Positions 24,001-64,000 of a DNA stretch of 64,000 bases are shown here, piece after piece. The notes under the pieces were generated by a model. It was not told where the DNA came from. It did no database searches and saw only the letters and a program-made list of their open reading frames with translations. This DNA is from Paraspadella gotoi (lineage: Eukaryota > Animalia > Chaetognatha). Positions within the stretch are counted from its first letter, which is position 1. The number at the start of each line of letters is the position of its first letter. Both the position numbers and the translations under genes were made by a program. Location: positions 1,875,448 to 1,939,447 of the forward strand of contig CM119267.1 of NCBI GenBank assembly GCA_051294375.1, given 5' to 3'.

Positions 24001-24032
<32 letters not shown>

Positions 24033-24130
24033 GTCTTTCTTCTTTTTCATTCTTTCTTTCTTTCCATCTCTCATTTTCCCCTCAGACTTTCTCAGTATTC
24101 CAGATCCAACGTTTTTGAGAATTTTTGCTC

Positions 24131-24161
<31 letters not shown>

Positions 24162-25194: not shown

Positions 25195-25247
<53 letters not shown>

Positions 25248-29438: not shown

Positions 29439-29491
<53 letters not shown>

Positions 29492-30452
29492 CGAGAGAGA
29501 GGTGGACGATTTGTTCACGCATCGCTTATGGTACTTTAAGCAAGAAGAAATCCCCATGGGATTAAGTCCGATCATCCGTTGTCTTGATCAAAAAAGAGAG
29601 AGAGAGAGAATAGAGAGAAACGAAATGGTTCATCTTAAAATTAGATGACGGATCGTATTTATAGTTTTATTTTACAAATTGAAAACATTTCCTTGTTTCT
29701 TTCTGCTTTTCCATTCCTTTCCTCCTTCCTTCCTTCCCTCTATTTCGCTTTCCTTCCATCTTCCTTTCCTCCTCTCTTTCTTTTCCTCCCTTCCTTCTTT
29801 CCCCCTCTTTTCCCCTTTCCTTTCCTCCCTTCCTCTTTTCCTCCTCTCTTTCTTCCTCCCTGCTCCTTTTTCCTCCTCTCTTCCTTTCCTCACCTTCCTT
29901 CTTTCCCCTCGTCTTCCTTTCCTCCCTTCCTTCGCTTCCTCCTCTCTTTTCCTTTTCCTCCCTTCCTTCTTTCCCCTCGTCTTTCCTTTCCCTCCCTTCC
30001 CTTTCCTTCCTCCCCTCTCTTTCCTTTCCTCCCTTCCTTCTTTCTTCCCTCTTTAAAGAGACGCCCAGACGAGGTTCGAAATTGGGTTGTCATGGCGACG
30101 AAAGTTGAGGAAGATGGAGGAGGCGTCCACTAAGAGTACGACGACGACGACGACGACGACGACGTCCTCGGATGGCGAGAGAAACGATTTACTCGTTTTT
30201 TTTTTCTTTTTTGAATTTTGACTGAAATTTTTTCACAATTCACGCTTTACTAGACTGAGCTTGACTCAGCAACAGTCAATGTGGTCTCACAGTCAGTCTC
30301 CTACCCATCTCACCTTCTTCATTTATCCAATTCACAAAAACCACTCACGGTTACTTTCACATCTGCGTTCCAGTTTTTCCTTCACAAATTTTCACTCTTA
30401 CATTATTTTCGGTGTGAAGAATTTTTTGTGAAACTTAATCCCAAAATATTTC

Positions 30453-30483
<31 letters not shown>

Positions 30484-30581
30484 GAGCAAAAATTCTCAAA
30501 AACGTTGGATCTGGAATACTGAGAAAGTCTGAGGGGAAAATGAGAGATGGAAAGAAAGAAAGAATGAAAAAGAAGAAAGAC

Positions 30582-30613
<32 letters not shown>

Positions 30614-31167
30614 AAAAAAGAAAAGAGAAAGAAAGAGAAAAGAAGAAAGAAAGGAAAGAAAGAAAGAAAGAAAGAATAAAAGAAGTCACAAAAACAATTA
30701 AAAAAATATTTTGAACAAAAAAAAAAATGTTTTTAATTAAGTTTTGAATGATGTTAATTCATAATGAATCATTAAAGTCATTAAAATTGTGAAATTAGAT
30801 TAAGATGACGACGACATATACGACGATAAAGAGCGAATAAGGCATAGACGAAGTTTAACTACAACGAGGGTTTCGCTGTCTCATTATTCTGAAATTAAAA
30901 CGGTGGTTTATGAATGTTTATCACGTCCAAGTGAAATGTTTCATTTAAATGATTTCATCATTGGAGTTCAATCGATGGGTTGTCTCGCTCTCTCTCTCTC
31001 TCTCTCTCCTCTCTCCTCTCTTTCTCTCTTATCCATCTCTATCTCAATCTCTCTTTCCTCTCTTCTCTGTCTCCCTTTCTTTTCTCTCTCTCTCTCTCAT
31101 TCTAATCTCTCTTCTTCTTTCTCGTCTCTCTCTGTCTCTCTCTCTTCTCTCCCTCCTCATCTCCCAC
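28009..31167 (-). repeat. Right arm of the inverted duplication
   Basis: Reverse complement of 23464-26677. The inner ~2 kb looks identical; the outer part has indels. Its distal end (30800-31150) is repeated again at ~31490-31860. Confidence 0.95.
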
Positions 31168-39864: not shown

Positions 39865-41361
39865 CTAACTCTGTTTACCTTTTATTGAAGACAATCTATC
39901 AAGTTTTATGTAACAAGTCCTAAGTTGTTTTCCGCTTCTTAATGTTAAGATATTACTCTCTACCATTTCCTCTTTTTCTTCAGTTTCACCATTTTCTTCG
40001 CCACAAATCACGCACTCCATCCTTTCATCCTCTTTTTCCGTCTCTTCCACCGTACTGTCTGGATATTCATCTACTTCATCGCAGATTTGAAATTCATTCT
40101 CAACCGCCTTATCAACGCTGTCCTCATCTTCCATTGTATTCGTTAAATTATTCCTAACTTTTTCTATAACTGAGTGTAATCTGACCTTTTTGTCTTCCAC
40201 TTCGTTTTCAATCCCCACCATCTCATTTTCTTGTTCCTTTTCATCTATGATAATTACTCTACTGTTGCCACTTTCTTTGTTGCCGGTGAATAGTCGTGAG
40301 TAATTTTTCATATTCATTTGTAACGATGGAAAAGCAACATCGTTGTTGTTGTTGTTGGTCGCCGTCTCTTGTTGTTGACGCTCCATTTCTTCTAACTTTT
40401 TTTTTTCATTTTCTTCTCTGGCTTTGATCTGACATGTTAATAGTTTTGTAACCTTTCTCTTTTTCTTAAGTAATTCTTTCTTCTGTTCTTTTACCATCTC
40501 TTCCTCTAATTGTATTCTCTTAAGATAATTACTAAACTCATTTTCATAATTTAATGTTTTCATTTGTTTTTCCGTCATTTGTTCCAAGTTTTGTAACGGA
40601 GTGGTTGAAAGAAGTGTAGTAGCAATGGAAGATGGTGAATGATGTATCGTCATTCCTGCTGTTGTTTGCTGAGTTGTTGGCGTTGAAATAATCGCGCTCG
40701 GTTGTTTATCAATTGCGTTTTCTTTTAGAGGTGTTGCTTGATAGTTGTTATTGTTGATGTTCGGCAAAGGATGTCGAACGATAGATGGAGCTGATTGCAA
40801 GATAGATGGAGGTGATTGCAAGATAGTAGGACGAGGCGAAGTAAAAATGATAGATGGCGCTGCTTTCGTTGAATGAGAGAGAGAGATAGATTGAGCAGAA
40901 GGCTGTTTTAATTTTTGAGAAAAGATGATCTGTTTCGTTTGTAAGGTTGCTATCAAGTTCTCTTGTTGCCTAATCTTTTCATTTTGCTGATTAAGCATCA
41001 TTGACTGCTGATTGATTTGTTGAATTTGTTGGTTTTGTATTTTTTTCAAATGCAAAATTTCCTCCTGTCTCATTTCTTCTCTCTTATTAGTTGTAAGGTA
41101 AATTGCAAAGTTTTTACCAATATCTCTCACGCAAGGCGGATTTGTTGGTATAAAACGCCTAGAATTTCTTAATACCATCTCCGTTCCTCCATATATCCCC
41201 CATTGTAAAGTTGGTTGCACCTCGTTTTTAGGGCTTGCGAATACAGGGGTTAGTATCGCGGTATTAAATTCTAGGGGTGAGGCAATAATCGACCCTGATT
41301 CTTGAACCGTCACCTGATTTCCTTGTGCTTCCTTGTTATCTTGTTGTTGTCTGGAATCCAT
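39865..41361 (-). CDS. 498-aa Q/E/K-rich, probably coiled-coil protein of unknown function, head-to-head with the ATPase
   Basis: Long clean ORF of mixed composition. C-terminal CVIC, LRSGK and CYIKLDRL motifs. ATG is 81 bp from the ATPase ATG. Possible donor AG|GTAAAC near the 3' end. Confidence 0.7.
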   Translation of the reverse strand: MDSRQQQDNKEAQGNQVTVQESGSIIASPLEFNTAILTPVFASPKNEVQPTLQWGIYGGTEMVLRNSRRFIPTNPPCVRDIGKNFAIYLTTNKREEMRQEEILHLKKIQNQQIQQINQQSMMLNQQNEKIRQQENLIATLQTKQIIFSQKLKQPSAQSISLSHSTKAAPSIIFTSPRPTILQSPPSILQSAPSIVRHPLPNINNNNYQATPLKENAIDKQPSAIISTPTTQQTTAGMTIHHSPSSIATTLLSTTPLQNLEQMTEKQMKTLNYENEFSNYLKRIQLEEEMVKEQKKELLKKKRKVTKLLTCQIKAREENEKKKLEEMERQQQETATNNNNNDVAFPSLQMNMKNYSRLFTGNKESGNSRVIIIDEKEQENEMVGIENEVEDKKVRLHSVIEKVRNNLTNTMEDEDSVDKAVENEFQICDEVDEYPDSTVEETEKEDERMECVICGEENGETEEKEEMVESNILTLRSGKQLRTCYIKLDRLSSIKGKQS

Positions 41362-41441
41362 TCCTAAAAAAAAATATTAACATATTGCGAGTGATCATAT
41401 ATAATAAATGGTTTTCCTTATATCTTATCATTTTAAAAAAA

Positions 41442-42642: not shown

Positions 42643-43593
42643 ATGTCGTCGAAGCCGTTGAGATACGCGGAGCGCATGTTTCTCGTTTCCGCAAAGGATT
42701 TGAAAAAACTCGGTTACAACGTCCCTCCCACCGTCTCCTCCAATCACATCGTCGATTCCTTCGCCCCTAACCCTTCGCCGATTCCACCCAAGAACGTCAA
42801 CATTCCCGAAGATTGTTACATGGTTGACTTTAACAGCGAGTTTCTCAAGTCTAAGAAGCTCGCGGAGAACTTGGTGGAGAGCGATTGGAGGGGATTGGAA
42901 TCGAGAATATCGCCGCTGATCGAAAACATTAGCAAGGATCGATTGATGCGAAACAGAGACAGAATTAAAAGCGAAATTCTTTCTCTCAATGGAGTAGAGA
43001 TAAAAAAAGATAGAGTTTTCGTGGATGACGTTTCGGTGGGCGACGTCGATGAAATCTCTAATCACTTGTCGTACACAAAGTCCATCTCCCCCGATCAAAT
43101 TCAAAATTATTTGTTTTGGTTGAAAGATCAGAAGCCATCGAAAGAAGATGTCTCTCTCCCCGAGGACGTCAAAGAGATTCCTCAAACTTCGATAAAATTA
43201 GATTCCTCACCCGTCGTTAAAAAATCTGGCGTCATTTCGACGCCGGTTAAAAAGGCGGGAATCTCTCAGACTCCAACCAAGAGAATTAACGCCCTATCTT
43301 CAACGCCGGTCAAGAAANNNNNNNNNNCCGGAACGCCCGTTAAAAGACCGGCGCCGTCTTCACCCGCGGTCACCACTCCGGTTAAGAAGATCTCTACCCC
43401 TACCAGAAGAGAGGAACCGAAAAAGAAGACCGGGAGCCCCTTTAAAAAGAAAGTCACGACAACGACAACGACGTTAAAAAAAGCGCCGACGATCACTTCT
43501 CCGCCCAAAACTAGATCCAGAAAAAAGACGGTAGATACGGAGGATGTCCAACAAAAGAAAAAAGCTCNNNNNNNNNNATACCTCAGTCTCTGA
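42643..43593 (+). CDS. Basic protein with repeated (S/T)PxK/R motifs, putative DNA-condensing core protein
   Basis: 316-aa ORF containing two 10-N gaps, with STPVKK, TPTKR, STPVKK, GTPVKR, TTPVKK, STPTRR, GSPFKKK and TSPPKTR. Confidence 0.7.
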   Translation: MSSKPLRYAERMFLVSAKDLKKLGYNVPPTVSSNHIVDSFAPNPSPIPPKNVNIPEDCYMVDFNSEFLKSKKLAENLVESDWRGLESRISPLIENISKDRLMRNRDRIKSEILSLNGVEIKKDRVFVDDVSVGDVDEISNHLSYTKSISPDQIQNYLFWLKDQKPSKEDVSLPEDVKEIPQTSIKLDSSPVVKKSGVISTPVKKAGISQTPTKRINALSSTPVKKXXXXGTPVKRPAPSSPAVTTPVKKISTPTRREEPKKKTGSPFKKKVTTTTTTLKKAPTITSPPKTRSRKKTVDTEDVQQKKKAXXXXYLSL

Positions 43594-44713
43594 CAAAGAG
43601 AGAAAGAACAAAACGATAGGCGACATTTACTACGACGCGAAACATCCGGCAGGCTTTTCCACCGTATCCAGAGTATTTCAAGCTGCTCGTCGACGAGACC
43701 CATCCATCGTCAAGTCTGACATACAANNNNNNNNNNGCGCCCAAAGAGTATTTACTAATTATAAACGCCCCCCTAAAAAGCTATTCAGAAAATATTACGT
43801 TTTGAGACGAAATTCTGAATTCAGCATCGATTTAGTCGACGTTCAAGCCTTGAAGACCCGTTCCAACGGGTTTGCCTACTTTTTATCTTGCGTAGATGCC
43901 TTTAGCAAATGGGGATGGTGTCGTCCGTTAAAAACAAAGACCGCTTCCGAAGTCGCTTCCGCTTTCGCTTCCATCATTGAAGACAATGGTTTTCAAGCCC
44001 CTGACTTGATAGTCATGGATCGGGGCAGAGAGTGGAGCGGAAACTTTGCCAGATTGATGGAGGCGCTGGAGATCGAGGTCGTATACCCGCCCAGCGGAAT
44101 GAAGGCTCCGTTGGTCGAATCATTCAACTCGACCATAGAATCTTATCTTTACAGAGTCATGTACGCCATGTCCGACTGGAATTTCGTCAAGTATCTTCAA
44201 CCCTGCGTCAGCGCCTACAACGCTCGTCCTCGAGCGTCGCTTTTTGGAATGTCACCTGCCTCGGCCCATCGAGCCTCGAACGAGAACGAACTGAGAGAGA
44301 AGTATTTGAAAGCCCGTCTCGCCCATCGCGCTAAATACGCCGGCCGTCGCCCAATTTTTAAGGTCGGTCAGTCAGTCAAAAGAGTTTTGAAGCGGGGTCC
44401 ATTTTCGCGAGGATACGCTCAACGTTTTCAGGATCAAATTTTTCGCATCTCTCGCGTACAGCGAACGGTGCCTCCAACGTATAAATTAGAAAACTCGCGA
44501 AAGACGTACTACGATCATCAGCTGGTCGCCGCCAAAGAACCTAATCGCCCTCGAGAAAAACGTTACTTTGTAATTAAAACGCGCAAAACCGACGGTAGAA
44601 AATTAAGGTCTGGAAATCGTTCCGGTCAGTCGACCAGCTACTTGGTCAGATCGAGCGACTCGGATCGCGGGCGTTGGATGAGTCAGGAAGATGTCGATCG
44701 CCTCGTTGACTGA
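43544..44713 (+). CDS. Retroviral-type (rve) DDE integrase of Maverick type
   Basis: IYYDAKHPAGFS N-terminal motif; IDLVD, CVDAFSKW, MDRGREW and VESFNSTI supply the D-D-E; FKVGQSV...FSRGY...YKL SH3-like tail; degenerate chromo-like YLVR...W at the C-terminus. Confidence 0.95.
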   Translation: MSNKRKKLXXXXTSVSDKERKNKTIGDIYYDAKHPAGFSTVSRVFQAARRRDPSIVKSDIQXXXXAQRVFTNYKRPPKKLFRKYYVLRRNSEFSIDLVDVQALKTRSNGFAYFLSCVDAFSKWGWCRPLKTKTASEVASAFASIIEDNGFQAPDLIVMDRGREWSGNFARLMEALEIEVVYPPSGMKAPLVESFNSTIESYLYRVMYAMSDWNFVKYLQPCVSAYNARPRASLFGMSPASAHRASNENELREKYLKARLAHRAKYAGRRPIFKVGQSVKRVLKRGPFSRGYAQRFQDQIFRISRVQRTVPPTYKLENSRKTYYDHQLVAAKEPNRPREKRYFVIKTRKTDGRKLRSGNRSGQSTSYLVRSSDSDRGRWMSQEDVDRLVD

Positions 44714-45716
44714 TTCCGACTTTTACGTCATGATGAGTAGCGACGGAGTCGATGACAGCTTCGTAGAGGGCAACGTCAGCGGAGATTTTCGTCTTCGTTT
44801 ACCGGATCCCATTCAACTGGACGGCGGAGTTTGGGAATGCGCCTTATTAGAATTCAGTTACATTAATCATATCTATAATGTACTCAACCCTGAGGAAAAC
44901 TATATATTAATTTTCGACTGGCTTTACAAAATATCCGACGACCCGCCCATCCCAATTTGGGGAAATTTCACCTGGATTAAAATCCCTAATGGCAACTATC
45001 GAACCGGCGATCAACTCTGTCAAACTTTGAACAAATTATTGACAAAAGCGGTTCCTCGCCTCAACGACGTNNNNNNNNNNAATTCCATCAACAGAAAAAT
45101 ATCGTACAAGATCGCCAACGAGTACGTCACCTTAAAAATTGTCGGCCCCGTTCTCTTTCTCATGGGAGTTAACACGGAACCCGCGAATGAAAAATACTTC
45201 ATAATTGGTAAAACGAAACGGGGTGATAAGTACGATTATCAATACGTCAACACCGACGGAAAGACGGTCAAGGAAATNNNNNNNNNNGACAATCCAAATG
45301 TCGTTTTAGTCAGCGCTAATGACGACAAGGATGGGGAGATGGAGTTGGTGGTGCAAATGGAAATAAGCACGGCCCTGATGGTATATTGCAACTTCCTTCG
45401 ACGTTGGAGAGTCAGCAATTCTTACAGCTCTTTATTGAAGATTGTGCCCCTAGAAAGACCCAAGGAAGAAGAAGCCCCATCTCGCAAACTGTTTCACATC
45501 AAATCGCCCATATATTTGGAAGTGGAAAGGAAGCACTTGGACGTCCTGCACATGTCCATCAAAAATTTCTTTGGTCAAACCATAGTTTTTCAAGTGAGTC
45601 TAGGCATTTTTTTTTCTATAAAAACTCAAAGTTATTAACTTTTTTTTTTATTTCAATCGCAGGAAGGATTGACTTGGGCCTTACTTCATTTCCGTCGAAA
45701 AATACCGAGATATTAA
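44691..45716 (+). CDS. Minor capsid protein (penton, PX), 2 exons (intron 45594-45662)
   Basis: FYVMMSS...GNVSGDFRLRLPDPIQLDGGVWECALLEFSY, IPNGNY, LMVYCNF, LLKIVP and PIYLEV. Splicing CAA|GTGAGT...CGCAG|GAA adds EGLTWALLHFRRKIPRY*, restoring the terminal LHFRR motif. Confidence 0.9.
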
Positions 45717-48057: not shown

Positions 48058-48530
48058 ATGGATTCGAGTCGGATGAATAAAATTGACCGCAGTCGGATCC
48101 TCTACGGTAGCGCAATCTACGGTGGCATTTTTGCGCCTCTATACTACTCCCCCCCTCAGTCGAACCGTCGATCGTCTTTACGAATTTGGACCCCGATTAA
48201 ATTTGAGGCTCGCATTGGCTTATTGTTTGCAATGCCGACGAGCATAGATACTTCGTCATGGACGCTTCGGGCGATTCGCGCGATCGATTTAAACCCCCCC
48301 CCTTATCTTTCGCCGATCGAATAAAAAACCATAGTTTATTCCAACGTGGGTCATTCAGTCGGAACAAACTCAAACTTGCTTCGCTCATTGTCTTGGTCTT
48401 TTTACTCTTTCTGGCTAGAGGGATGTCGGCCGAGAGGGATCGTCGAGGAGGTCTACGATTTATCCCCGGGTCACGGATACCATGGAACACGATTTTAATC
48501 GCCACTCTACTGAATCAGATCGTTTGGACG
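48058..48530 (+). pseudogene. Adenain-like (C5) maturation cysteine protease, frameshifted as assembled
   Basis: Fragments YGGIFA, HWLIVC (~48213), RYFVMDASG (~48246) and WVIQSEQTQTCFAHCL (~48347-48395) give H-D-Q-C in adenain order. End approximate. Confidence 0.75.
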
Positions 48531-50864
48531 CCGAAGACGGACGAATCGTGCCATTTTTCGCCCGCCCCAATAATTACTAGTAAAGACTATAAAGCAAAGA
48601 CATGTCGATCGAAGAGATAAATAAATAAAAAAATGGCTAAAAGCAAAGAAAGGTGGAGCAGCGACGGGCGTCGTAATAAAAGGACGCAATTTTTGGTGGA
48701 AAAAAGAAAAAAATGCGGAAAAAAGGAAAAAAATGCAAACTGCGGAAGACGCAAGCAAGAGGGCCAAAAAAAAAATGTCACGGAATTACGCAATGACAAT
48801 ATGTCTAGACTAGACTTGTACAAAAAAAACTTGATTGAGATTTTGAACATTAAAACGTTACTCACCGATATTTCTCTCTCTCTCTCTCTCTCTGTCTTCG
48901 ATGATGACGATGATTAGATTTTGGAGGGACAGCGACGGGATGCGAAGCTTCTATTCTTTCTTTATCTTTAACTTAACTGTTAAAAAAAAGGGAGAGAGAA
49001 AAAAAAATAAAATTCATCAAAAAAAAAATGGTCTAAACTGCGGGGCGCTGAGTGAGCGCCGATCTCGATTGAGCGAAAGAGAGAGATATCGCTTCATCGA
49101 AAACTTTTTTCCATTTCTCTCTCTCTCTCTCTCCCCCCCTTTTTTTTTTCTTACCCATTATCTAAACCAAACATCGCCGTCGCCTCTCACAATATCGCGG
49201 CGACATTAAAAAAAAAAATAAATCGGCGGCAAATTTTTTTTTTTAAAATTTCGATAGTATATTTTACCGATCACATCGATATATCTCTCTCACTTCAATC
49301 TCCGAGAGACGACGCCTTTCTACCATCGGCAAAAAAAAAAAAAAGGAAAAAAATGTCCTCAATTTTTTTCGTTTTCCGTCGGTGAGAGGATATCGATTTC
49401 GTGCCACTCAAATCTAGAGGACCATCTCCGTTCAAAATTAAAGAAAAACGGATTAAATTGGAAAACGATCCTCATAAGAGCCATTTGGCTAAAGCAGTGG
49501 GGAATGGCGGGCTCTTAGGTCGAACGCTTACCATTTGCTGACGAGGCGAACTTCGCTTACCTCGAGAATCGACTAATAAATGATGGGGGTCCAGAACATT
49601 TCGCGGAGTCGAGCCACGGTTTAAGCATTACTAAGCGATAGATGAGGCGATAATAGTCGCTCTGTTCCGAAACGATTCCAAATGGTGCGACTATCTGCCG
49701 AGAGTGGCGGTGGAACGAGCTTCGCGTTTGTAGATGCAAACGACGGCAAGGGGCGTTTCCCCAATCTCCGTGCACCACGGGACGCCCCTGGAAAATCGGA
49801 CAACGGGTGCCCCATAACGGTGGTCCTTCGGTTCCTGGAGCCAGAAATTTTCGTACATTGAGGTTAGTTTTTTTTTTTTTTCTCTCATATATATTTTTTT
49901 TTAAAAATAAACCAAAAACCTTTTTAACTCGCCTTTTATGTCTCTTCGTCTCTCTCTCTCTCTATTTTTTTTTCTATTCAGCATTTTATCTCATCAAACC
50001 GTCACGGCCTGCTCTCCTGAGGACTCGAACCGTCTGCTTGACGATTGAATCAGGAGTCGCCGGCGAGAGAAGAGATGAGCCGATCCTGGGAGAATTCGTC
50101 TCGGCGTTTTGCCGGGTTCCGGGTTCGGGGAGAGGCCTAAATCTCTCCTGATAAACGCCGCGATCAATTCGAACCGCGGCGGTCGGGCGTCCTTCCGACG
50201 CCGGCTCTTCCTCGGAAACTTTCCTTCGTGGTCGAGCGGGTGATGGAGTGTACGAAGAAGAAAAGTCAGTAAGCGCCAAGAATAGAAATCGTGGCTGTCA
50301 CCTCTCTGTCTTCTTTGTCTTTTCTTCCTCCACCTATTATCCTCCTCCCTTTCCTACTCCTCTCCCATCTTATTCAACTCCTCGCTCGCTCCTCTCCTCC
50401 CCCTCCCTCCTCCTCCTAACCATTCTACCGGCACCGACGAAAAGGCCAAGGGGATCGAAGAGAAAGGACCGTCCGTCGACAGAGCCGACCTATGACGAGC
50501 GACGACGGCACGACGACAGCCACTCAGAAGGAGAGGAGAAGAAACAACGGAGGGAAAAAGAAGACAAAAAAAAACGAAGAAGAAAAAACGAGAAGAAGAA
50601 GGAAGAAGTGGCCAATGTTATTGCGATCAACTTTGAATCTGTTTAAAACGATATATCTTTTTGAAATCTGTTTAAAACATATCATTTTTCTCTATCTCTT
50701 TCGCTGTCTAACTTTAATAGATCTTCTCTCTCTCTTCCTCTCTCTTATCTCTTTTGGTGCGAAACGAAAAAAATAATTTTTATAATAACAATTTAATTAA
50801 TGTACAATACAATACATTAATTTAATGTTATAATTTCCTTTTTTCTTCTTTTTTTTCTCGAACA

Positions 50865-53800
50865 ATGAGCTGCCCCAACGATCCCGGGCGCGATAATCGG
50901 CGCCAGAGCCAGGGACCCGCAAATTTAGACAGCCAGAATCTCTTTGTCGTCCGAAGCGGCGGCACGCTCTTGTTCTTGAACGAGGCGTTTTGGAGGTAAA
51001 TTTTCAGATCCTGTGTTGAGCTGCCTCTGAGTCCCGTTCTTGACGGGAACGAGAGTTTTTCAAGGAATTCTAAAGATATCGTGATTCAGTTGGGTTTTTT
51101 GATCGTGGCTCGGCATGTCTCCCTTGGCCCGAAATCTCTTGCGCTCGTCTTCGACTTTGCGTGCCGCGCAAAAGCGCGCACGCAAGTCCTCTCGGCGCGC
51201 GCACGCTTTGCGTGCCGCAGGGGGGGATCGCACCTCTCGCTGCAGCGGCTTGTTCAGCCTGCGCAGCGGTGAGTCGCCGCGGCTTGGTCAGCCCGCGGCT
51301 AATGTTTTCCGGAGGAAGAAGATTCGCGTTTCTTCTTCTCTCTTCTTCTCTCTTTCTTCTTCTTCTTCTTTAGCCTCGGAGTCGGAGGATGCATGACTGA
51401 AGTCACTGACGTCGAGAAGAAAAGTTTTTCGGTCTCCAAATTGGCGCATTTTTCAAGAAAGTCGTCGCCAATCGGCATTCGCCGATCGAAACTCGAGGGG
51501 TCGAGGAGGCGAGGAGAGGGAAGCAACTGCCCCGAACGTACGTGATACGACTCTATATCTCCGCGCCACCGTCTCTGCGCCCGGGAGGAGGTCGGAGGTA
51601 AAATCGTCCTCGGTCGTCTCGTCATCAGTCGTCGTGCTTTTAGCGTCGGCCTGATCTCAGGGGGCGGGTTGGACCGGCTCGTCGAGCACGGAAACGGCGT
51701 AAATTTCGGGCAGCAATGTTACAAGCTGCTAATTTATCGTCTGCTTTCCGCCAATGTTCGTCTACGAAAGAGAGAAAGAGAAAGAAAGAGAGAGGATTGA
51801 GGAGGAGAAAAAGTTGTTGTAAAACAAGTTAAAAATGAAAATGCGAAAGAAGAAAAAGAAGAGAGAGAGCAGAGAGAGAGAAAAAGTTACTTTTGAAAAA
51901 ACACGACCCTGGCTTCGGATTTCTCTCTCTGTAAGCCAAAAGAATCGAACGCTTTTCGCAGGCGGCGTTGTTGACAAAGACGAGGATGCTCCAAGGGATA
52001 TACGCTGGTGTCCAACATTCCGACCACTTGCCGAGGATCTCGCCAAAGTTGGATCGTTGCGCGTCTCCTTTGGCGATACTCAATGACAACAAACCGCCGT
52101 CCGTGGTCCGTGCGAACGAAACGACCTCGGGTCTCCCCTCGCAATCCGGAAACACCCTCTTGACGCCTTCGCCCCCCCATAGGTAAAATCTGCCATCAGC
52201 AGCTTGCTAGCGTCCAATATGGCGACGCCACCGAATGATCGGCGAGAAGTTTTGCCTTGACTCGCGCCAACTTGACGACTGGCCAAATTCGGCGAAACGA
52301 CGTTGAACCGAGTGAAAGTCTACTCTGGACGACCAGCTTGGGAGAGGTCGTCGGTGAACTCCGGACGCAGCTTGACGGTTTGACAAAGAGCCAAGCGATT
52401 CATTATCGGTATCGATCCTGCGGGCGATGACGATCGGTTAGTTACATTATTAATTATTAGCTTTAATTATTAACTATTAGTTTAATGTATTAATTTATTA
52501 GTTAATTATTAATCTAAATTATCTAATTAATTAGTTAATTAAAATTCCTAACTCCGAAACAGGAATTGCACACACACTTGAGAAGCGTCTTTCATGAAGG
52601 AAGTTTTCGCCAGTCTTTCTCTCGCGGCGTGGGAAATGAATCGCACGAAATCCTTCTATTAAAACGGGCTTTTCTGTCTGTACATTCGATCGCCGCAATG
52701 AAAGGGTCGCTGAGTTCCGACCAAACGACAGGGCGAAAGCGAGACTCTCTCTAGTCAAAAAGTATCTCTCTATGTCCAGTCAAGCAGGCTATCAACTTTT
52801 CCGTTCAACGCCCACTCTGTGAATTCGTACTTTCGTAGCCAGGGAGACGACTAACGGACTGAGTCTCGGAGTGCGAAGCTCTCTTTCTTCGGGGAGAATT
52901 GGGAAAGTCTTTTCATGGCGTGATGAAGATTGCTCCGGAGGGTTGCGCAGATCGACTTCGAGAATCAAGCCTTCGCCATCTTTCGTCCCGACGCGTGCAC
53001 ATTGCGCGCCAATTTCCGGGCCGTACAACTCGCTTCGAATCTCTTTACCAAACGATCATTGGACACGAAGCGTAACCGGGCGTTAAGGTAAGGCCAACCG
53101 CGGACAACTGGCGTACCGTAATAAACGAACAGGATGTGAATAAAATTTGTTTTTTTTTTTTGCCCCGCTCTTTTTTATTCCCCATTCTATTCTTACAGAT
53201 TGTATGCGCGTCCACGTGAACGATCAAACGCGTCGCCGAAAATTCTGGGGATCGTCGTCGTTGCTTAGCCGGATTCGTTCGGACGACACCGGAAAAAAAA
53301 TCGTGAGTTGAACGGGGAAACGAACCCTCCCCCTATAAAGGACGCAGAGATATGTTAATTATCATTAGATTTTTTTTTTTTTTTTTTTTGGGTTTGTTAA
53401 TTTATCTCTTCTACCTGAGCCATGGGATTCGAAGGCTAAAAAATTCTTGACGAGTTTTTTAAGTAGAAAATGAAGCTTCTATTTCCCAGAGAATTGAAAG
53501 CATGATGTCTTGAACTGAGAGAGACGCAGAAAATAAATATAAATAAATAAATACATAAATATCTCTTTCTCTTATCTTTCCTCATCTTAATCGCCAGCTT
53601 CCGCTGACGTAATAGGCTGCGGTTCGAGATTGAAAGTTTTGTCTGTCATCACACCTGCTAGTTCGAAACTATATCACAGAGAAATAGAGAATCCAGTTCT
53701 ATAAAAAATAGAAATAAATAAAATTGCGCCCCTCTTATTTCTTAATGAATTTATATATATATATATTCTCACGTGTAAATAACAGATATTCGCCAGAGTG

Positions 53801-56042
53801 TCGAAGCGACGAAGGCGCTCCCAGATCCTCAATTATCTCGAGTATTCCTCTTCGGATATCAATCGCTGCCGCCATCTTCGTTCGAAATTATTTCTCTCTT
53901 CGGTGCGGGTCGCGAAAAGGCGAGGTATCGTTTCAAAACGTCTCGAGACTGATGTAATTGAAGGGCCATGGTCATCTTGAACGCATGACAGGTCCGATCA
54001 GACTCTCGCGCCTGAAAAGGAATCGATTGACGTGAGCGTTAAGTCATGCGGAAACTATGATCGCGGGTGGACTCTTGCCTCGACAAGTTGCGCCAAACCT
54101 CTCCTCTCGACGCGCCGCAAATGAACAATGTATTTTGAAGCATTCTTTCGCCCGCGAATCCACGATATTTTCCCAGGGATCTGTTATCAAAAATTGTAAG
54201 AGTCCGGATGGTCAAGTAGCGATTTTTGTGGCAATCGCAACGAAAAAACCTCAAGCCTCTTTCGCCCTCATCATCCGTCTCTATTTTCGTCGTCGTCGTC
54301 GTCGTCGTCGTCGTTTCATCGTCGTCTTCGTCTTCTCGTCCCTCGTCGTCGACGCGCCTTCCGTTCTCGTACCACTCGATCGGTAACAATGATCGCACAA
54401 AAAAGTTGATGTCCAGCGGGTGTGAAAGGCGTTGCCCTTGGCCAATTACGTTGCCGATGTTTCTAGACCATCTTTGTTGGCTCCCACGCGCAGGCTTGAG
54501 AATGAGATTTGGGTCAAACCTTTCCGGCGCCTGATTAAAAAAAAAATTTTGTAAAGATGAGTCGAAAGATGAAAACGGCAATGCTTTCTTACTTTTGATG
54601 GAAAGCTACATTATCCATTTGCCCGATGATTGGTTTTTTGCGCGTTACAAAATCAGTAATGTGCTTTGAAACGTATGACTCCGAGCGATGATCGTGATGT
54701 CGCGTAACCTTTTCACCCTCCAGATTTCTCTTTTTGCCATGAAGAAGACCAAAAATCGGACCAGCTCAAGTTGAATGTCGATTCGGCTCTTCGTTCATCA
54801 CCCATTGGGAAGTTCTGTCGCAACAAAGCGCGATGATGATCGGAGTCCAGGCGCGGCCCGTTGAAGGAAGCGAAGACCCGGCGTTCGTCTCCCACGTATT
54901 TTCTCACGGGAAAGTCGTCCGAGGGTAGGGAAGATTTAATCTTATCGGCGAAGCTGATGCCGATAACTTGGTCCGATATTTCTTTCGCATCCTTGATCCT
55001 TGTTTACCAAGGATGATATTTGTTTGGCAATTTGAGCAACTATCTTAGCGTGAAGACTTTTCATGAGGACAGGAAATCTTATCCAAGACAATCGGCCTCA
55101 TCGCTCTTCATTTCTTTTATCTCCCTCTTCTCTAGGAACCGTGTGAACTGGACAGACATCTCGTCCTCAATATCGACGCGTAGGCCGACAGTAAGCTCAA
55201 CTCGGCGTGAAAAAAATTTTCCTGCGCGTCATAATGCCAACATTAAGTTCCTTCCGGTGATTAAGTTTCTAATTGGGCCGTCGCCGTACTTCTCGCCCGC
55301 CCATAAACGGAGTGAGCCGAAAACGTCGACGACTAAAGCGTGCTAAAGCAGGGACACTTTGATGCACAACGAACGACTTCCGTGCGATATTACCAAGACT
55401 GCGAAGAAGTAGTCGAGAAAGGTTGGTTATAGAAACCAGATGTCGTTCGCTATACTTGAAACGTTGTATCTTACATGCTCGATTCTTTTTTTAATTATTA
55501 AAAGATTACAAACTTTTAATATCCATTGGAACAGATTCGTTCTTATATAGAGACTTCTGCTACGGTATATATATTCTTTCTAATCCTTTAATCCCCACCT
55601 TCTTTTTAAAAATTGCATAAACGTTGATGCATAAATCGAGATTGAGTCTCTCGACGTGCGCAAAGGTGTTGGGCGTGGCCGGACAAGGTACTTGTTCTAA
55701 ATTAATTCTATGCTGATATTTTCTGTAACTACTTTCTAATTCAGGGTGACTGCGAGGTTTATACAGGCATGCCAGAAGAGCCAACTTCAAGCATATGGGG
55801 CTGCGCGATTTCACATTTACGACACATTTTTTATGAAGTAACCATTTAGGGGTAGGGAAGTGATGACCAAAAAGAGTCGTCTTTCCAGAATTTGGATAAA
55901 AACCCGCCAAGGTCAAGTCGGCTCGCTCAATTTTTGAATAGGAAATGTTAGACCCCATTTCGACTCTGTCGGATATTTGATTATACAGTTTAGCCAACAT
56001 GGTCGATAAGATTTTCATGATGCTGTCGCTCTCGTATATCAC
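50865..56042 (-). CDS. Protein-primed family B DNA polymerase, multi-exon and error-laden; true start probably further upstream
   Basis: N-terminal GSNI...TPKWLLHKKCVVNVK..ICLKLALLACL...INVY; exonuclease FD.NLIL (~54520); DSLFLCDIV; DIMLQF..VKIEL; LR|GGFVS; VDANNL|YG (motif A); GLILEVDL; KCVCNSCFG (motif B, ~52555-52580); AILDASKLLMADFTY; a DTDG-like motif C (~52100); LDTSVYPLEHP; RAKG; DDKR-like end. Confidence 0.9.
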
Positions 56043-59000
56043 GACGCTTCTTTGATCGAAAAAGAAAGAAATGTAGTTGTCGTCTCTTTCGTTATAAAAC
56101 TTGACGGAAAAGCATAAATGAATCTTTTAAAATCTTTCTCTTTTTCAGTTCTTTCTTTATTATCGGTAAAATTTCTTTCTTCAAGTGTCTAGTCTCTATC
56201 TCGTATGTTTCTGTGGCGAGAGAGGCACGAGTGAGAGAGAGAGAGAGAGCCACTGTGTGATAGAGAGAGAGAATGGTGAGACATGAGTTGGAACAAAAAC
56301 TCCAGACGACGAGGACCAAGGAGATGAAAAGGAGGAAAGGAAGAGGAAGAGGAGGAGAAAGAAAATAGAAAAAGGAAAAGGAAAAAAGAAAAACAAAGGG
56401 AAAAGAAGGTTGAGATTAAATGACAGACGGGAGAGGAAAGGAAAAGAAATAGCATTTTTAACGATTTTTATTATTTCCCACACTCCGCGAGAGATCGATC
56501 CAAGGTACACCAATATACTTCAGAATCTATCGTCATCCGAATAGCCTCATATGGCTATTAATATCCTGTCACCATTCCATCGCACGTTCCTAAGCAGAGA
56601 ATACTTGAAGACGGAACCTCATCCTAGTCTATTCATCTCTCTGACTGCGTCTAAATTTCTTCTAGAATTAGTCTATCGTCCCATACGTCAAATCGTTCGA
56701 CCTCAGAAGACGTATCTTTATCGTGGTTCTCCCTAGAGACATAGCTCGCCTCACCGGACCTCTTTCTCTCTCCCAGTACTCACTTCGGCAGGTCTCTCTC
56801 GATCGTGACACTGCTGAGCCCTAGAGCCATTTTCCTCTCATCGTCTTGATGAGTAGAGCAAAATTCCGCCACCCATGCTCTTTCCTGCCCTACATTCTCT
56901 AGCTTCTCGTTCAACCTCTTCTCCCTCCTGCTCTCCTATATCTAATACGTGCTCTCCTCATGTCGTCACAGCCTGCTCTCCTGCTCAAATCTCCTCACTC
57001 CGCACACTTCTGTTCTGGACCATTCGTCTTCTCTCTCCCCCTGCTCGCTTCTCGGTCGTCTTTTCGAGGCTGACAGTTGAAACTTGACCTCCGTTCATCT
57101 TGTCTCGTCCGTCTCTCTCTTCCTCCTCTTCTTCTCCTCCTCTCTCTCTCTTCCTCTCCTCTCCTCCTCACCTCTCTCCTCTCGCTGTTCGATCTCCTTG
57201 TCCCGTACCGGCGGGGTCTGTTGCACATCGTGACCAAGACGAGTAAGGAAGCTGGCTCCGCCCCTCTGCGGATGCGGATGAAGAACGAGCCCTTGCCTGA
57301 GGACGTGTGCGCCCTATGGCACAGGGCTCTCCCAGCGTCTAGCTGCTCGCATGAAAACCTCTCGTAACGGTCGGATCGGTCCTCGAGAGATTCTCGGAGG
57401 CGATGCGCGAAAGCAGCGTAGTTGAACGAGGCGAGTGGCGTTATAAGAAGATCGCGCGCCGATCTTCGCGGCAAGCGTCCGCCGATGGCTATGAGGAACA
57501 GCCCTGAAGGAGCTCCGCGCTAGGCCGTCGAAGCGGAAACGTCCAACTCCATATGGAAAATAACATGGCCAGAGCTGGGCTTGTGGGGAAGAGGGCGTCT
57601 ATGGTGCGGGAACTGTTTGCTCTCTCCGACGACGATCCTCTTGCTTGGTTCGGACTACCTGACTTTCTCGTTATTCTCTTCCTCGCCAACTCAAGTCGTA
57701 AGCTCGGCTCTCCATTCGTTCGATCCCTCGAGGCTCCTCCGGTTTGCATCGCCGATAAGCGTTCCGAATAAGTGATATCGCCTCCTCTGAAGTAATAGAA
57801 TAATAGTATCTGAAAATGGTAAAAAAAAAAAATAGTCATTAGAGAAACAATTTAAATTTCTATTCTTTCTTCAGACATTACCTAACGAAGAATTCAATTC
57901 TATTTTTGCCCATACTGCAGAATAAACTCGGCCGAAAGATAGACAATATCTGTTCCGTTAAAAATAACAACGGTGGTTATTAGTTCAGTGTTAGATAGAC
58001 ATCGAGTAACACATATAAGTCTCAGTCAGAGCGTATAACTCTACGGTTGAACCTCACAAACATTGGAAATAACAACAACTCGAAGAACACCACCACAAAA
58101 TGAAATCTCCACAAAGTACCACTCTTAAGTAGATCTAAATGATCTTCGGACGTCCACTGATTCTTACTCTGAGTCCTAACGTAATTTTTTTAACGTTACA
58201 TTGATATTTCTACTCGGAAGGAGCGGAGCGCTCTATCCAGTGAGCGCACGTGCACCATTTCGAGCATACAAGTTTGTAAAAAACGGATAAAGAGATCTCT
58301 ATCGTTATTTGACTTTTCGTTTTACCATTAAATCAATTATATGAAGTGGCATAATCATTCAAGAATCTTTATCAAATCAAGCTGATTTGTGATGTTAAAT
58401 GAGGCTCGAAGCTGCCCATCAATGTTATCTAGGATGTTGAGTATCACTACTAATGGTACTCTGCACTTACGCAACGTAGAAATACCATATCTCTCAAATC
58501 TTTTAATTTTTAGCATTTGAATTAAGAACCCTGGCAATATATGCAGGTCAATAGGATCAACAGAAATTTTTTTTCTTTATTGGACAAGTGAGAAACGAAA
58601 TCGTAGTTATCTCAAATTATACCATCAGTGAAATAATAAATACACTAATAATATATTATATATAATATAAATATATATATGTCGTTTATTTCGAATTCAG
58701 TATGATTCAGTACAGTTCAAGTGAACATCAAGCAATCACTTAGGTCTAGAAAAACATACAAATATGTGACAAAGAACAAAGGATATAATATATGGAGTAT
58801 TATGATCATCTGTAACCAAAAAAGAACCATTCTCTTACCTGAGTCCATCGACCCTCCGCTTCCTCTCGCAGTACCACTCCTCGCGCTCCATCCCGACATT
58901 CCATACTTCCTCGTCCACGTCTCCCACTCTCTTTCTTCTTCCCGTAACAAGACAATCCAGAGTCGGTCCTGTTGACCGCCACTTCTTCACATACTGCTCC

Positions 59001-59717: not shown

Positions 59718-60545
59718 TTAACGGAAAACATTGAATAAAGATATAAAGAGATCAAATTTTGAAGGTACCACTTGTAAGATCGGATACAATGATAAAGAAT
59801 AACCTTGATAAAAACGACAGCTACAATTCCCTTCGTAGGGATCGGAATAAAAAATATGTGGTGATTTAGTATTACAAAGCTTATTAACTTCTTTCTGCCA
59901 GTGTAGATGATATCGACAAAATAAGTTTTTATTGTCATCCTTAAAAATATTTTTGTGGGCGATGGAATCGTATCGCCATGACATACCCTCGTCGTTTAAA
60001 AGAGTAGAAAGCGAAAGACACGCGTCGTATCGATTAAACCATTCGCAAAAATGATGCAATTCTCGGCCAATCGCGCAAAGAATGATAAACATGTCCTTGG
60101 GCAGGTGATCGCGGTAATCTTGCTCCGGAGAAAAAACAAACTGAGTTAATTTCAAACCGGTAAGAACGTCCGGGATGGTAGTAACAGATCTGACGACTTG
60201 CTCCATGGAGACGTACAAAAGTTGAAGGTTCGGTGCCGAAGAGAGACTCATGATTCTCACGATGTCTCGCTTAACTCTGAGCCAGCGCAAAGGAGGGTCG
60301 AAACCGTAACGAAGAAACGTCGCGTTAGCCAGTTCGGTCGAATGATGAAGAGGATAAAAGTTTTCGTGGAAGATTCGATCGGCAGTCGTTAAAGTCTGCA
60401 AAAGACGCTTGACTAAAAAGCCATAGTGCGATTTGTGATAGTTTCGAGGAGGGGGTGAAACTTTAAGACCCGACCCCGGCGTTAAGTACCACTTATCTTT
60501 GTCCGAGTCATCTTCGCATAGTTCATCTTCCATGGAGTCGTTCAT
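59718..60545 (-). CDS. 275-aa orphan accessory protein with a Cys/His-rich C-terminus
   Basis: Clean complex ORF directly downstream of the PC4-like gene; FCRYHLHW...CSCRFY. No family recognised. Confidence 0.7.
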   Translation of the reverse strand: MNDSMEDELCEDDSDKDKWYLTPGSGLKVSPPPRNYHKSHYGFLVKRLLQTLTTADRIFHENFYPLHHSTELANATFLRYGFDPPLRWLRVKRDIVRIMSLSSAPNLQLLYVSMEQVVRSVTTIPDVLTGLKLTQFVFSPEQDYRDHLPKDMFIILCAIGRELHHFCEWFNRYDACLSLSTLLNDEGMSWRYDSIAHKNIFKDDNKNLFCRYHLHWQKEVNKLCNTKSPHIFYSDPYEGNCSCRFYQGYSLSLYPILQVVPSKFDLFISLFNVFR

Positions 60546-60716
60546 CTTGTTTAATCAACCTAAACGATTAAGCACCCAGCGCGCGCGCATTGATTATTTA
60601 ATGAAGCATCGCAGTAAAAATGATAACATATTTTTTTTTTAAATTCAATCAACCATCGTTTAGATACATAACTTTTTTTTCATTTTTTCTTCTTATAAAA
60701 AAAGAAGAAAAAAGTT

Positions 60717-62292
60717 TTACATGGCCTTGAGAATTTTTTTGACCAACTTAAGCAACCCTCTAAACTCGTCGGCGGATAAAGAAAGCCCGGCCAAATTTGA
60801 CGTGACGAAAAGAAGCCCGAGCGCGTTGTCGAAAAAGTAAGGCCTTAAAGCGACATTGGCCTTTGACGTTTCATCCTTTGACTTGTAAACGCTAAGGGAT
60901 ATCCCCAAGCTTTCCGTGATGGCGTAGCGAGGCCCGTTGACAATGTCGGCAACATCGCTCAGACTCTCCAGCTTATTCAACTCGTCTTGAATGCGAACCT
61001 CATAGAGTTGAACCAAACGCTCCATCTCGTTCTTGTTGAGAACGACGCGAGTGACCGGCTCAATCGCCCGAGATTTAGACGATAAAGAGTAACCGGTACC
61101 CCCGTCAGGAGCAGACGACGACCCCGCGCCATTTTGAGAAGGAACGAATCTTTCCTTGTGGACCACGATACCGTTGTTGTCCGAAGCGAGAGTGACCATT
61201 ACGTAAGTCGAAAGGGTCCAGTAATCGCTGGGCGTCAACTTGGCGCTGCGATGCATGTCGTCGAGTCCTCCCCCTTCGCGCAAAGTCGGCTGACGAAGGA
61301 GAGCCTGCGGTCTAAAAAAATATTTTTTTATTTACTTTTCTTTCTCTCTTTCTTTCGTCGGTTGTTTTTACAATTACCTCTTGCAAGGCTTTTTACCACC
61401 GCCGCTCGGAGACGCCGAGACGTTAAAAGGCCCTGATGATGATGATGATGATGCGTGGGCGCCAATAGCCTCGTCTTCGCCAAATTGCTGATTCGACTGG
61501 TGTTCTTCGATGTAAAGGTCATCGTCATCGTCATTCATCATATATACTAACTGGCGTCTAATTAAATACATGATAATTTTTTTATTTTTTAAAAAATAAA
61601 CAAACGAAAAAAACTTACCTTTTCGCTTTGTCCCGTTCATCTTTGAGCTGTTTGACCTCTCTTCTCAAATCGATCAACTCCTTTTGAGTGTCTCGTAAAA
61701 CCCCGCAAGGAAGAGAATGGTAGAATCTTTGTTTTGAATTTCAATTCTAAAAAGATTTATTATATTAATACATAATATAAATAATATATGTATATATATA
61801 TTACTTGTTTTTATCTAGGACTTTGAAGGAGTTTTCAAAACTTCTGGCCCTGGCGTAAGTCGTAAATTTATATTCGTGACAAATTTCACACAAAGTGATA
61901 AACTGTATAAAGAAAAAGATATTTTTTACTATTGCAATATCAAAGAGAAAAAAAATATAATTACCGAAATACGGCAAATGGCGCAGGTAGGATTTTTGGT
62001 AGAAATAATTTTGTCAAAACAAAGAGAACACAATGGTGACCTAATAATTAATTAATTAGTTAATTAGTTAATTAAACAAACGTATAAAAGAAAGTGTCAT
62101 TATGCTCATTTGTTTTTTTTATAATAAAATTACGCGCTCTCATGGACATTTAAAAAACTAAAATAAAAAGATTTATGTTCAAAAAGTTACTTGAACGCAA
62201 CATATATTTTACTATTTTGTTTAAATTCCGTGAAACAAATTGGGCAATTTAGAAAAAGAAGAATCTCCGTTAAATTGTGAAAAATCCTCCAT
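60717..62292 (-). CDS. Multi-exon gene: RING finger, coiled/acidic linker, tandem PC4-like ssDNA-binding domains
   Basis: Exons give LNCPICFTEF (~62250) and GH..CSLCFDKIISTKNPTCAICR (62040-61965). Introns at 61903-61964, 61747-61804, 61558-61618 and 61312-61377; the last two splice in frame (phase 2) into ORF 60717-61283. That ORF's ISLSVYKS...VALRPYFFD...GLSLSADEFRGL fits the PC4 pattern. Confidence 0.7.
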
Positions 62293-62640
62293 ATAAAAAA
62301 GAAAGAAGAAAAGTTAGAAAAAAGAAGAATACGATCGACGTAGATCCGAGATTCAAAAGTCATTTTCTTTTATAGGTAAGAACATTGCAAAATATAACCT
62401 CACCTAGTTGAATGAGAAATGACCAAGTAAATAAAATAATTTTACTAGCTCTCGATAATCTTTTCAGTGTAAATAGGCGAGTAAAAAAAAAATTCTTTTA
62501 ACTGGCCAAAAAAAATAATCTCTTATCAATGATTTTTTTAAATTAAAGTCCGGTTTATTTCTAGTTAGGACTTCTTTCTCTTTTTCGTCTTCTTCTCTGT
62601 CTCTGTCTCTGTCTCTTCTCTTTCAAATTTTTATCATATA

Positions 62641-63443
62641 ATGATGAAACACAACCTTTTTTGTAGTGTGTTTTTTCCTGGGGATCGTAAAGGCAGCAAA
62701 TAGGACCCGAAGACGTGAGTAATTGTCTTATTTTAAATTTACATACTAAAAAGGAACAGAATAATTAGGTAAAAAACAATGGGCCTGGTGATTTACTGCC
62801 GCCGTGGAAACGGCCGTCGTCGACGACGCCATTGATCACAACGACATCAAGCAGGCCGTCGTCAACGACACCATTAATCACAACGACATCAAGCAGGCCG
62901 TCGTCAACGACACCATTAATCACAACGACATCAAGCACCTCGACTAAAAGACCGACAAAAACTACGATTAAATAACGAGTCCAACGACATCAACAACACT
63001 ACAAACAAAATCACGACAAATGATCGACTCGATAAAACAACGACAATGGCAACAGCAACAACAAGTAAAATGAAACAACAACAAACCGAACGAGATAATA
63101 CAGAAACAAAGATGTCATCAACAAAGCCAACAATGACAATAACAACGACCGAGAAAAAAAACACAACGACATGGAGTCACAAACAAACGATGACAATGAC
63201 GAGGCCAACGACGATGACAATGAGACCAACGACGATAACAACGACGATGACAATGACGGAGCAAAGCCCGACAACGACGACCGAGAATAAAACCACAACG
63301 ACGATGACAATGACGGAGCAAAGTCCGACAACTACGACCGAGAATAAAACCACAAGTATGATGACAATGACGAGGCCAATGACAACGACGACCGAGAATA
63401 AAACCACAACGACAACGACGATGACAAATCCAAATACAATGAC
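62641..63443 (+). CDS. Mucin-like Thr/Ser-rich secreted glycoprotein (runs into N gap; several frameshifts)
   Basis: Signal-peptide-like MMKHNLF..FFLGIVKA after one homopolymer correction; donor C|GTGAGT at 62715. Three 42-bp repeats encode RPSSTTPLITTTSS; 57-bp repeats encode TMTMTEQSPTTTTENKTT. Repeat copies differ mainly at synonymous sites. Confidence 0.6.
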
Positions 63444-63544
63444 ANNNNNNNNNNNNNNNNNNNNNNNNNNNNNNNNNNNNNNNNNNNNNNNNNNNNNNNN
63501 NNNNNNNNNNNNNNNNNNNNNNNNNNNNNNNNNNNNNNNNNNNN

Positions 63545-64000
63545 GGTAAGGCCAAGCGACTGGCGTAACCGTAACTAAAAGAAAAAATGTGAATAAAAAA
63601 ATTTTTTTTTTTGCTTTTTTTTATTCCCATTCCTTCTTACAGATTATTGGCGTCCACGTGAACGATCAAACGCGCCGGAAATTCTGGATCGTCGTCGTTG
63701 TAGCCGACTTCGTTCGATGAACCGGAAAAATATCGTGAGTTGACGGAAACGAACCCTCCCCTAATAAAAGAAAGAGAGAGATTAGTTAATTATCATGATT
63801 TTTTTTTTTGTTCTCACTCTCTACCTGAGCATGGATTCAAAGGCTAAAAATTCTTGACGAGTTTTAGTAGAAAATAACTCTATTTTCACCCCCGAGAATT
63901 GAAGCATGATGTCTTGACTGAGAGAGAGAGAGAGAATAAAAAGAGGAATAAATAAATAAATAAATAAATATCTCTTTTCTCTATCTTTCCTCACTTAATC
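63545..64000 (-). CDS. Second, cleaner copy of the PolB segment at ~53086-53590
   Basis: Colinear with copy 1. Spliced reading: DIMLQFSGVKIELF...FLAFESMLR|GGFVSVNSRYF...RLIVHVDANNL|YGYASRLAL, with introns 63761-63824 and 63575-63640. Confidence 0.9.

Follow-up and report, generated by a model that had tools for sequence, protein, structure and literature searches.

A putative RING ubiquitin ligase gene with an orphan C-terminal domain in a repeat-rich stretch of the Paraspadella gotoi genome

What kind of protein is encoded by a chaetognath gene that opens with the two halves of a RING finger and closes with a long exon of no recognisable family, and does such a gene belong to a mobile element? 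The question is raised by a minus-strand locus at positions 62292 to 60717 of a 64,000-nucleotide (nt) stretch of the Paraspadella gotoi genome (GCA_051294375.1, CM119267.1:1,875,448-1,939,447), hereafter the window, in whose coordinates all positions are given. An earlier note on this DNA had proposed a RING E3 ligase fused to two PC4-like domains, which would bind single-stranded DNA during the replication of a Maverick element and remove host factors there. The reading that we favour, with modest confidence, is a real RING E3 ligase gene whose product would comprise the RING finger, a short pairing helix, a flexible acidic and Ser-rich linker and, as its tail, a lineage-specific domain that binds the target. 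The predicted product is one protein of about 390-410 residues, a putative ubiquitin ligase. The RING finger itself is seen at the level of motifs and model fragments, and from these letters we infer a single transcript, ligase activity and a target.

The predicted gene runs from an ATG at 62292 to a stop codon at 60719-60717. When the unaltered window letters are spliced by script, six exons and five GT-AG introns (61-150 nt) yield an open frame of 409 codons, and the introns of this spliced model have a GC content of 0.12-0.23 versus 0.29-0.52 in the exons. The parts of the gene are as follows, with a slash marking an exon boundary wherever splice sites are written out.

62367..62374, minus strand: TATA-like box TATAAAAG, about 75 nt 5' of ATG 62292; letters read directly, function putative
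62191..62292, minus strand: coding part of exon 1, with the start codon, the first RING half (CPIC) and the donor gtaac; from reading and the spliced model
62041..62190, minus strand: intron 1, 150 nt, GC 0.20, GT..AG; from the spliced model
61965..62040, minus strand: exon 2 (76 nt), the second RING half CSLC-x11-CAIC; from reading and the spliced model
61805..61902, minus strand: exon 3 (98 nt), 33 codons with a CxxCH motif, joined to exon 2 in phase 0
61619..61726, minus strand: exon 4, charged and helix-prone, donor AG/gtaagt; from the spliced model, 5' end uncertain
61378..61557, minus strand: exon 5, an acidic run, a Ser run and a Gly/Lys end, acceptor ttaattag, donor AG/gtaattg; from the spliced model
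60717..61311, minus strand: exon 6, 197 codons plus stop, the orphan C-terminal domain (P0001); from reading and the spliced model

The landmarks named in the earlier note (CPIC, CSLC...CAIC, the charged exon and the acidic, Ser-rich exon) were all located on the minus strand, and its in-frame splice of AG/gtaattg into the long open reading frame (ORF) is present as well, with tttttttag/A as the acceptor. That ORF exists and is open, although it measures 197 codons from the acceptor rather than the 188 that had been stated. The CxxCH exon at 61805-61902 is absent from the earlier listing. At the 5' end, ATG codons occur at 62363 and 62292, and in the window letters CPIC lies in the frame of the former; if the TATA-like box is used, ATG 62363 would fall outside the mRNA. 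Exons 2 and 3 are separated by a 62-nt intron (GTAATT..ATACAG). Exon 4 holds 10 Lys or Arg and 7 Asp or Glu among 36 residues, and exon 5, with a D5-L-Y motif and a run of six Ser, holds 10 Asp or Glu and 16 Ser or Gly among 60. The junctions between exons 4 and 5 (AG/gtaagt .. ttaattag/A) and between exons 5 and 6 (AG/gtaattg .. tttttttag/A) both use strong sites and keep the frame.

The family assignment comes from the first two exons, which were scored separately against Pfam and not as one spliced protein. The final 21 residues of exon 1 match zf-RING_11 with an E value of 0.0022 and 18.1 bits (cut-off 27) over model positions 1-18 of 29, and they also match zf-RING_2 and zf-RING_5. Exon 2, with 25 residues, matches zf-C3HC4_3 with an E value of 0.0056 and 16.9 bits (cut-off 27) over positions 25-43 of 49, followed by zf-RING_4 (E 0.011) and zf-C3HC4 (E 0.021), the span over the RING models being positions 21-46. 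The two pieces lie on the same strand, in the correct order, and cover complementary ends of the models. For comparison, the C3HC4 RING pattern reads C-x2-C-x(9-39)-C-x(1-3)-H-x(2-3)-C-x2-C-x(4-48)-C-x2-C. The RING pieces probably exceed chance, each half matching the corresponding end of the model, and in this respect the RING finger of the earlier note is upheld, with short-read contigs adding an in-frame start and a Cys-x3-His.

These short-read contigs, from four runs of two studies, were compared with the window letters; none of them covers 61619-61719, and the variants that they define were read by hand from difference tables applied to the window. At the exon-1 donor, one extra letter relative to the window is present in all seven contigs, and 12 nt upstream of it a further extra letter is present in six of the seven, with two different letters marking two variants. 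Between ATG 62292 and CPIC, a net one-letter length difference at 62255-62262 is found in two of the three covering contigs, and in these two the ATG, which is out of frame with CPIC in the window, comes into frame with it. By the same hand reading, both variants have a Cys codon 12 codons past CPIC, with differing codons on either side, and in both exon 1 contributes the first base of a codon whose remainder, from exon 2, makes it Gly, with His as the next residue. The first RING half of the variants is therefore C-x2-C-x12-C-x3-H, which places ligands 1-4 at RING spacing. Over exon 2 the contigs show one gap against the window, whose position is not among the tabulated differences (those within 62038-62084 are omitted). 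A micro-exon at 62156-62133 that might have supplied ligands 3 and 4 was considered and dropped, as in the short-read variants the Cys stands where exon 1 ends.

One X1 contig shows no substitutions and five single-letter gaps against the window in 142 nt of the 62086-62300 region, whereas over the GC-richer 59795-60680 two X1 contigs agree with the window throughout 865 nt. Homopolymer errors in AT-rich sequence leave such a pattern. The broken frames of the window's 5' exons are most likely due to errors of one letter made by the assembly in AT-rich DNA and not to decay. Between the two variants, length differences occur at five places in intron 1 and nowhere in the shared part of exon 1, which fits an exon under constraint. 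To judge from the contigs, the small indel corrections called for in the earlier note mostly appear to offset errors of the assembly. A reading of three variants as a multi-copy family was dropped, the contig depths in X5 (10.2 plus 8.0, versus 21.3 in adjoining sequence) fitting alleles of one locus.

The last exon is also more than chance. Its length is 197 codons from the acceptor, 204 between stops and 179 from the first Met, and shuffling the 615-nt stretch gave an open frame of at least 197 codons in only 2 of 2000 trials. Its composition is typical of coding sequence, with A at 0.11 in third codon positions and G at 0.34 in first positions. Searches for relatives were uniformly silent. 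There were none among 1,835,955,588 representative proteins (phmmer, E up to 0.001), and none in a word-indexed search, in tblastn against phages or in IMG/VR. No Pfam family matched the exon, whole or in halves, at E up to 10; PHROGs returned nothing for P0001; and PDB sequences (phmmer, E up to 10) gave a single match at chance level (0.28). In the Atlas there was no usable match for the whole exon, and residues 118-197 scored 0.77, below lead level. A metagenome locus (L001) was set aside as a chance hit, with only an 8-residue word in common, which lies within a longer ORF of a high-GC bacterial contig. Single-sequence AlphaFold models had a mean predicted local distance difference test score (pLDDT) of 34.4 for the whole exon and 52.3 for its second half, both helical, of low confidence and unusable.

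Several observations weigh against a RING ligase gene of this layout and must be set beside the foregoing. Firstly, no RING model reaches its curated (gathering) cut-off, with 15-18 bits against 21-27, although scores of this size follow from each exon piece representing only one third of the domain. Secondly, the window letters place ligands 1-2 and 5-8 in one spliced frame and lack ligands 3-4, the Cys pattern being CxxC-x18-CxxC-x11-CxxC-x7-CxxCH. The Gly-His expected ahead of CSLC, the 'GH' of the earlier note, does form the first letters of exon 2, but in a frame other than that of CSLC in the window, and in the variants its connection to the CSLC frame requires another, unseen change of length by a single letter close to where exon 2 begins. 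Thirdly, the junction of exons 3 and 4 is in frame solely through the weak acceptor acaaag, or else through an unseen indel. A stronger acceptor, tttttag at 61747, lies 20 nt upstream and would give exon 4 an alternative 5' end at 61746; in the window letters it leads to a stop after 23 codons. Fourthly, no intron-spanning spliced joint was seen in the contigs, those of one run being guessed to be RNA and none of the listed runs being recorded as such. Lastly, conservation cannot vouch for coding in a last exon that has no relatives, and the substitutions among its contigs (5 non-synonymous and 2 synonymous, n = 7) are too few to interpret.

The proposal of one fused gene is plausible: all five junctions can be spliced into one open frame of 409 codons, but the acceptor between exons 3 and 4 is weak, and the earlier note held the link from RING to tail to be less certain than the last two junctions. 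If the gene is expressed as modelled, the RING finger would recruit an E2 that carries ubiquitin, the short charged helix may pair two chains, the acidic and Ser-rich stretch would act as a flexible linker, and the orphan C-terminal domain would select the target, be it a protein or a nucleic acid. Membership in the TRIM/RBCC group is not indicated, as its order of RING, B-box and coiled coil is not found here; no B-box family was detected on exon 3, and the charged helix spans about 27 residues. Exon 5 likewise returned no Pfam family, nor did exon 3 match any other.

Among C3HC4 RING E3 ligases (zf-C3HC4, zf-C3HC4_3 and zf-RING_2, _4, _5 and _11), the candidate shares the initial CxxC and the final CxxC-x11-CxxC, together with the Cys-x3-His at the expected spacing in the hand-read short-read variants. 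It departs from them in the missing ligands of the window letters, the missed cut-offs and the extra CxxCH in the following exon. Unlike in a typical C3HC4 RING, a 150-nt intron splits the domain at the position of ligands 3 and 4. As to mode of action, the earlier proposal resembles herpesvirus ICP0, a viral RING E3 that lacks a PC4-like domain and eliminates restriction factors of the host at viral genomes; ICP0 and the gene described here are unrelated in sequence.

A first alternative, unlikely in our estimation, keeps the RING E3 and makes the tail a tandem type I PC4-like binder of single-stranded DNA, encoded on a Maverick/Polinton, where it would coat the strands displaced in protein-primed replication and ubiquitinate host factors present there. 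To visual inspection, both halves of the last exon show hydrophobic runs of strand-like character with an amphipathic helix behind them. A rough Chou-Fasman scan gives E31-40, E47-51, E86-92 and H93-118 in the first half and E138-142, E155-158, E165-172 and H177-197 in the second, which would fit beta-beta-(beta)-beta-alpha twice. The exon is preceded by a Ser-rich and acidic stretch, and such a stretch also forms the N-terminal region of PC4. In P0001, residues 156-182 contain a putative look-alike of the PC4 motif R-x-Y-x-x-D ... G-h-S-L-x-x-E.

Despite these resemblances, the PC4 likeness that the earlier note saw in both halves received no support from any tool. Neither PC4, Whirly nor PurA was matched among Pfam families at E up to 10 by the whole exon or its halves. 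The halves are not detectably alike, since the local score of 20 for an internal repeat falls below the 24.2 +/- 4.1 of shuffled sequences and was reached by 909 of 1000 shuffles. A two-half profile returned nothing from the PDB, and no PC4 chain. PF02229 finds the PC4-like gene of phage T5 at 32.8 bits, which served as a positive control; against the T5 family, P0001 obtained an hhalign probability of 0.9%, with a weak profile built from 25 close relatives that are 92-100% identical, and its Smith-Waterman scores against the T5 protein were reached by 622 and 259 of 2000 shuffles. The PDB phmmer search, the Atlas and the two AlphaFold models, low-confidence and helical as they are, lend the fold no signal either.

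According to PMC7549692, the type I PC4-like fold consists of a four-stranded antiparallel sheet and a helix, twice per chain, type II being a dimer, and PC4-like domains show 'no apparent sequence conservation'. Silent sequence searches are thus tolerable for such domains and do not exclude the fold. Set against the type I members as described there (Whirly/P24, MRP1/2 and repeats I-II of Pur-alpha; PC4/Sub1 being PF02229), the exon agrees in its length of about 170 residues and, on the crude scan, in its two strand-rich, helix-ended halves, and it differs in having no sequence or profile match and in a 30-residue Gly/Ser loop that breaks the first half. The propensity scan is compatible with a type I topology, and the PC4 idea, being speculation, is neither supported nor excluded.

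The mobile-element half of this alternative begins with an rve integrase ORF on the plus strand at 43535-44710 (PF00665, E 1.4e-8, 35.4 bits versus a cut-off of 32.6), 16 kb from the gene. It is interrupted by runs of 10 Ns and followed by several orphan ORFs in the 42.1-49 kb region; the PDB gave nothing for it, and its relatives in IMG/VR are only 23% identical. Among four IMG/VR records that hold such relatives, the one searched contained no PC4. A Pfam scan of 41.5-60.7 kb covered 181 ORF pieces, namely 115 ORFs of at least 65 residues and 66 of 76 shorter minus-strand pieces from 50.5-59.3 kb, and the integrase is the only recognisable family in this region. The 181 pieces gave no match to the protein-primed polymerase family PF03175 (DNA_pol_B_2), a gene that indel errors may hide, and none to capsid, packaging ATPase or protease families. 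No inverted pair bracketing 42-63 kb was found, within a test limited by the N gap at 63445-63544 and by the window end. Three ORFs are reminiscent of Maverick proteins: 55563-56126 the N terminus of a polymerase, for which a search gave no relatives; 44682-45635 a penton-like protein; and 48207-48617, through its GSHW...DASG motif, adenain-like proteases, neither of the latter two confirmed by a tool. A Maverick replication role with removal of host factors, as the earlier note had it, is thereby left with a distant integrase and neither a polymerase match nor terminal inverted repeats. The contig depths, which fit alleles of one locus, likewise speak against it.

The structure of the gene is a further difficulty. 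In 10.1101/2022.07.12.499685, nematode Maverick core genes are described as intronless, and their cargo, which includes WASP proteases and KRMA kinases, as intron-bearing, endowed with ubiquitin-like domains and located close to the integrase. The Paraspadella gene resembles that cargo as an intron-containing, non-core gene near a Maverick-type integrase with a link to the ubiquitin system. However, the nematode cargo, as described there, lies 2-5 kb from the integrase, toward the left terminal repeat, in complete elements, whereas the present gene lies 16 kb away, on the other side, with no complete element seen. The gene fits neither the core nor the cargo pattern well. A looser parallel comes from Halocafeteria, where RING finger proteins are among the clusters common to polinton-like viruses and virophages (10.64898/2026.07.28.741278); as far as a comparison by description goes, these too are RING-finger accessory genes of Polinton-related elements, although the elements concerned are those of a protist.

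A second alternative, which we regard as rather unlikely, divides the locus into two genes, with a small RING-plus-helix protein (exons 1-4) that would end at the stop met after exon 4 if the intron there is retained, and a separate protein, made up of the acidic and Ser-rich stretch and the orphan domain, that would begin at the Met-Met in exon 5. Translation past the exon-4 donor does meet an immediate stop (AG/gtaa), exon 5 has two in-frame ATGs right before its acidic run, RNA linking the parts was not seen, and the weak junction of exons 3 and 4 makes the 5' half less certain. The stop after exon 4 is no sign of a gene end, however, as every phase-2 GTAA donor yields one. Furthermore, the gap between exons 4 and 5 is just 61 nt of AT-rich sequence, hardly enough space for a promoter, and the junctions on either side of exon 5 have strong sites that keep the frame.

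That the locus is a decaying copy or pseudogene, with real frame breaks in its 5' exons and no RING protein made, seems very unlikely. Such a view can draw on the out-of-frame ATG 62292 and the missing ligands of the window, on a repeat-rich surrounding with no recognisable host genes, and on the X1 contig nearest to the window (no substitutions), which has no extra letter behind 62201 among the differences listed. Against this, the same contig, with its five single-letter gaps and no substitutions, points to assembly error; the window letters still yield the open 409-codon spliced frame; the 197-codon last exon is intact; and, by hand reading, the frame and the Cys codon are retained in two other variants although the codons beside it differ. 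The boldest form of the earlier proposal, a Maverick/Polinton that has joined an E3 ligase to its own tandem PC4-fold single-strand binder, stationed on replicating element DNA and marking host repair or restriction factors for destruction, we likewise hold to be very unlikely.

The RING gene is followed by an intronless ORF of 278 codons (59718-60554, minus strand) that is co-oriented with it and starts 171 nt past its stop codon. This ORF is an orphan too, with no Pfam family, nothing from the PDB and only phrog_31615 at an E value of 0.002, and short-read contigs match the window exactly over most of its length. Just upstream of the RING gene are two sets of tandem repeats, one of three 42-nt units that are 93% alike (62812-62937) and one of four units of 54-57 nt (63106-63434), both of which give rise to long open frames of low complexity on the two strands. 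A direct repeat with copies at 53087-53592 and 63545-64000, in the same orientation and with 77.5% identity over 521 aligned nt, probably represents an unclassified repeat family; its second copy directly follows the 100-N gap (63445-63544) and reaches the window end.

Farther away, a large perfect palindrome occupies 23784-30830. Complementarity is 100% both between its 2010-nt arms (24668-26677 and 28009-30018) and between its 390-nt outer arms (23784-24173 and 30441-30830), and runs of N lie within it at 26678-26702 and 26825-26849. Either a foldback element or an artefact of the assembly could account for it. A minus-strand open frame of 503 codons at 39868-41376 is rich in Gln, Asn and Glu, has long charged helical stretches and belongs to no Pfam family. 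The remainder of the window holds no recognisable genes, and the surroundings are repeat-rich. In view of the single-letter gaps against the short reads, this assembly is not a reliable guide to open frames where it is AT-rich.

Of practical consequence is that the AT-rich 5' exons of this assembly carry single-letter errors, and frames there need a check against short reads before they are trusted. To our knowledge, animal Mavericks are not known to carry a ubiquitin ligase or a single-strand binder of their own, and we know of no mobile element in which a RING E3 is combined with tandem PC4 folds. A literature search found 'RING finger' and 'PC4-like' together in no paper and 'PC4' with 'Polinton' in a single one, and the passages searched of PMC11161782, 10.1101/697771 and 10.64898/2026.10.13.758929 do not mention a PC4 or RING domain. 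On balance, a genuine RING E3 gene that ends in an orphan domain is likely, and the PC4 fold and the replication story are speculation. If the former is true, the gene would add one more lineage-specific RING ligase, an ordinary addition to the family; greater weight would attach to it if the tail were a nucleic-acid-binding, PC4-like module and the gene rode on a Maverick.

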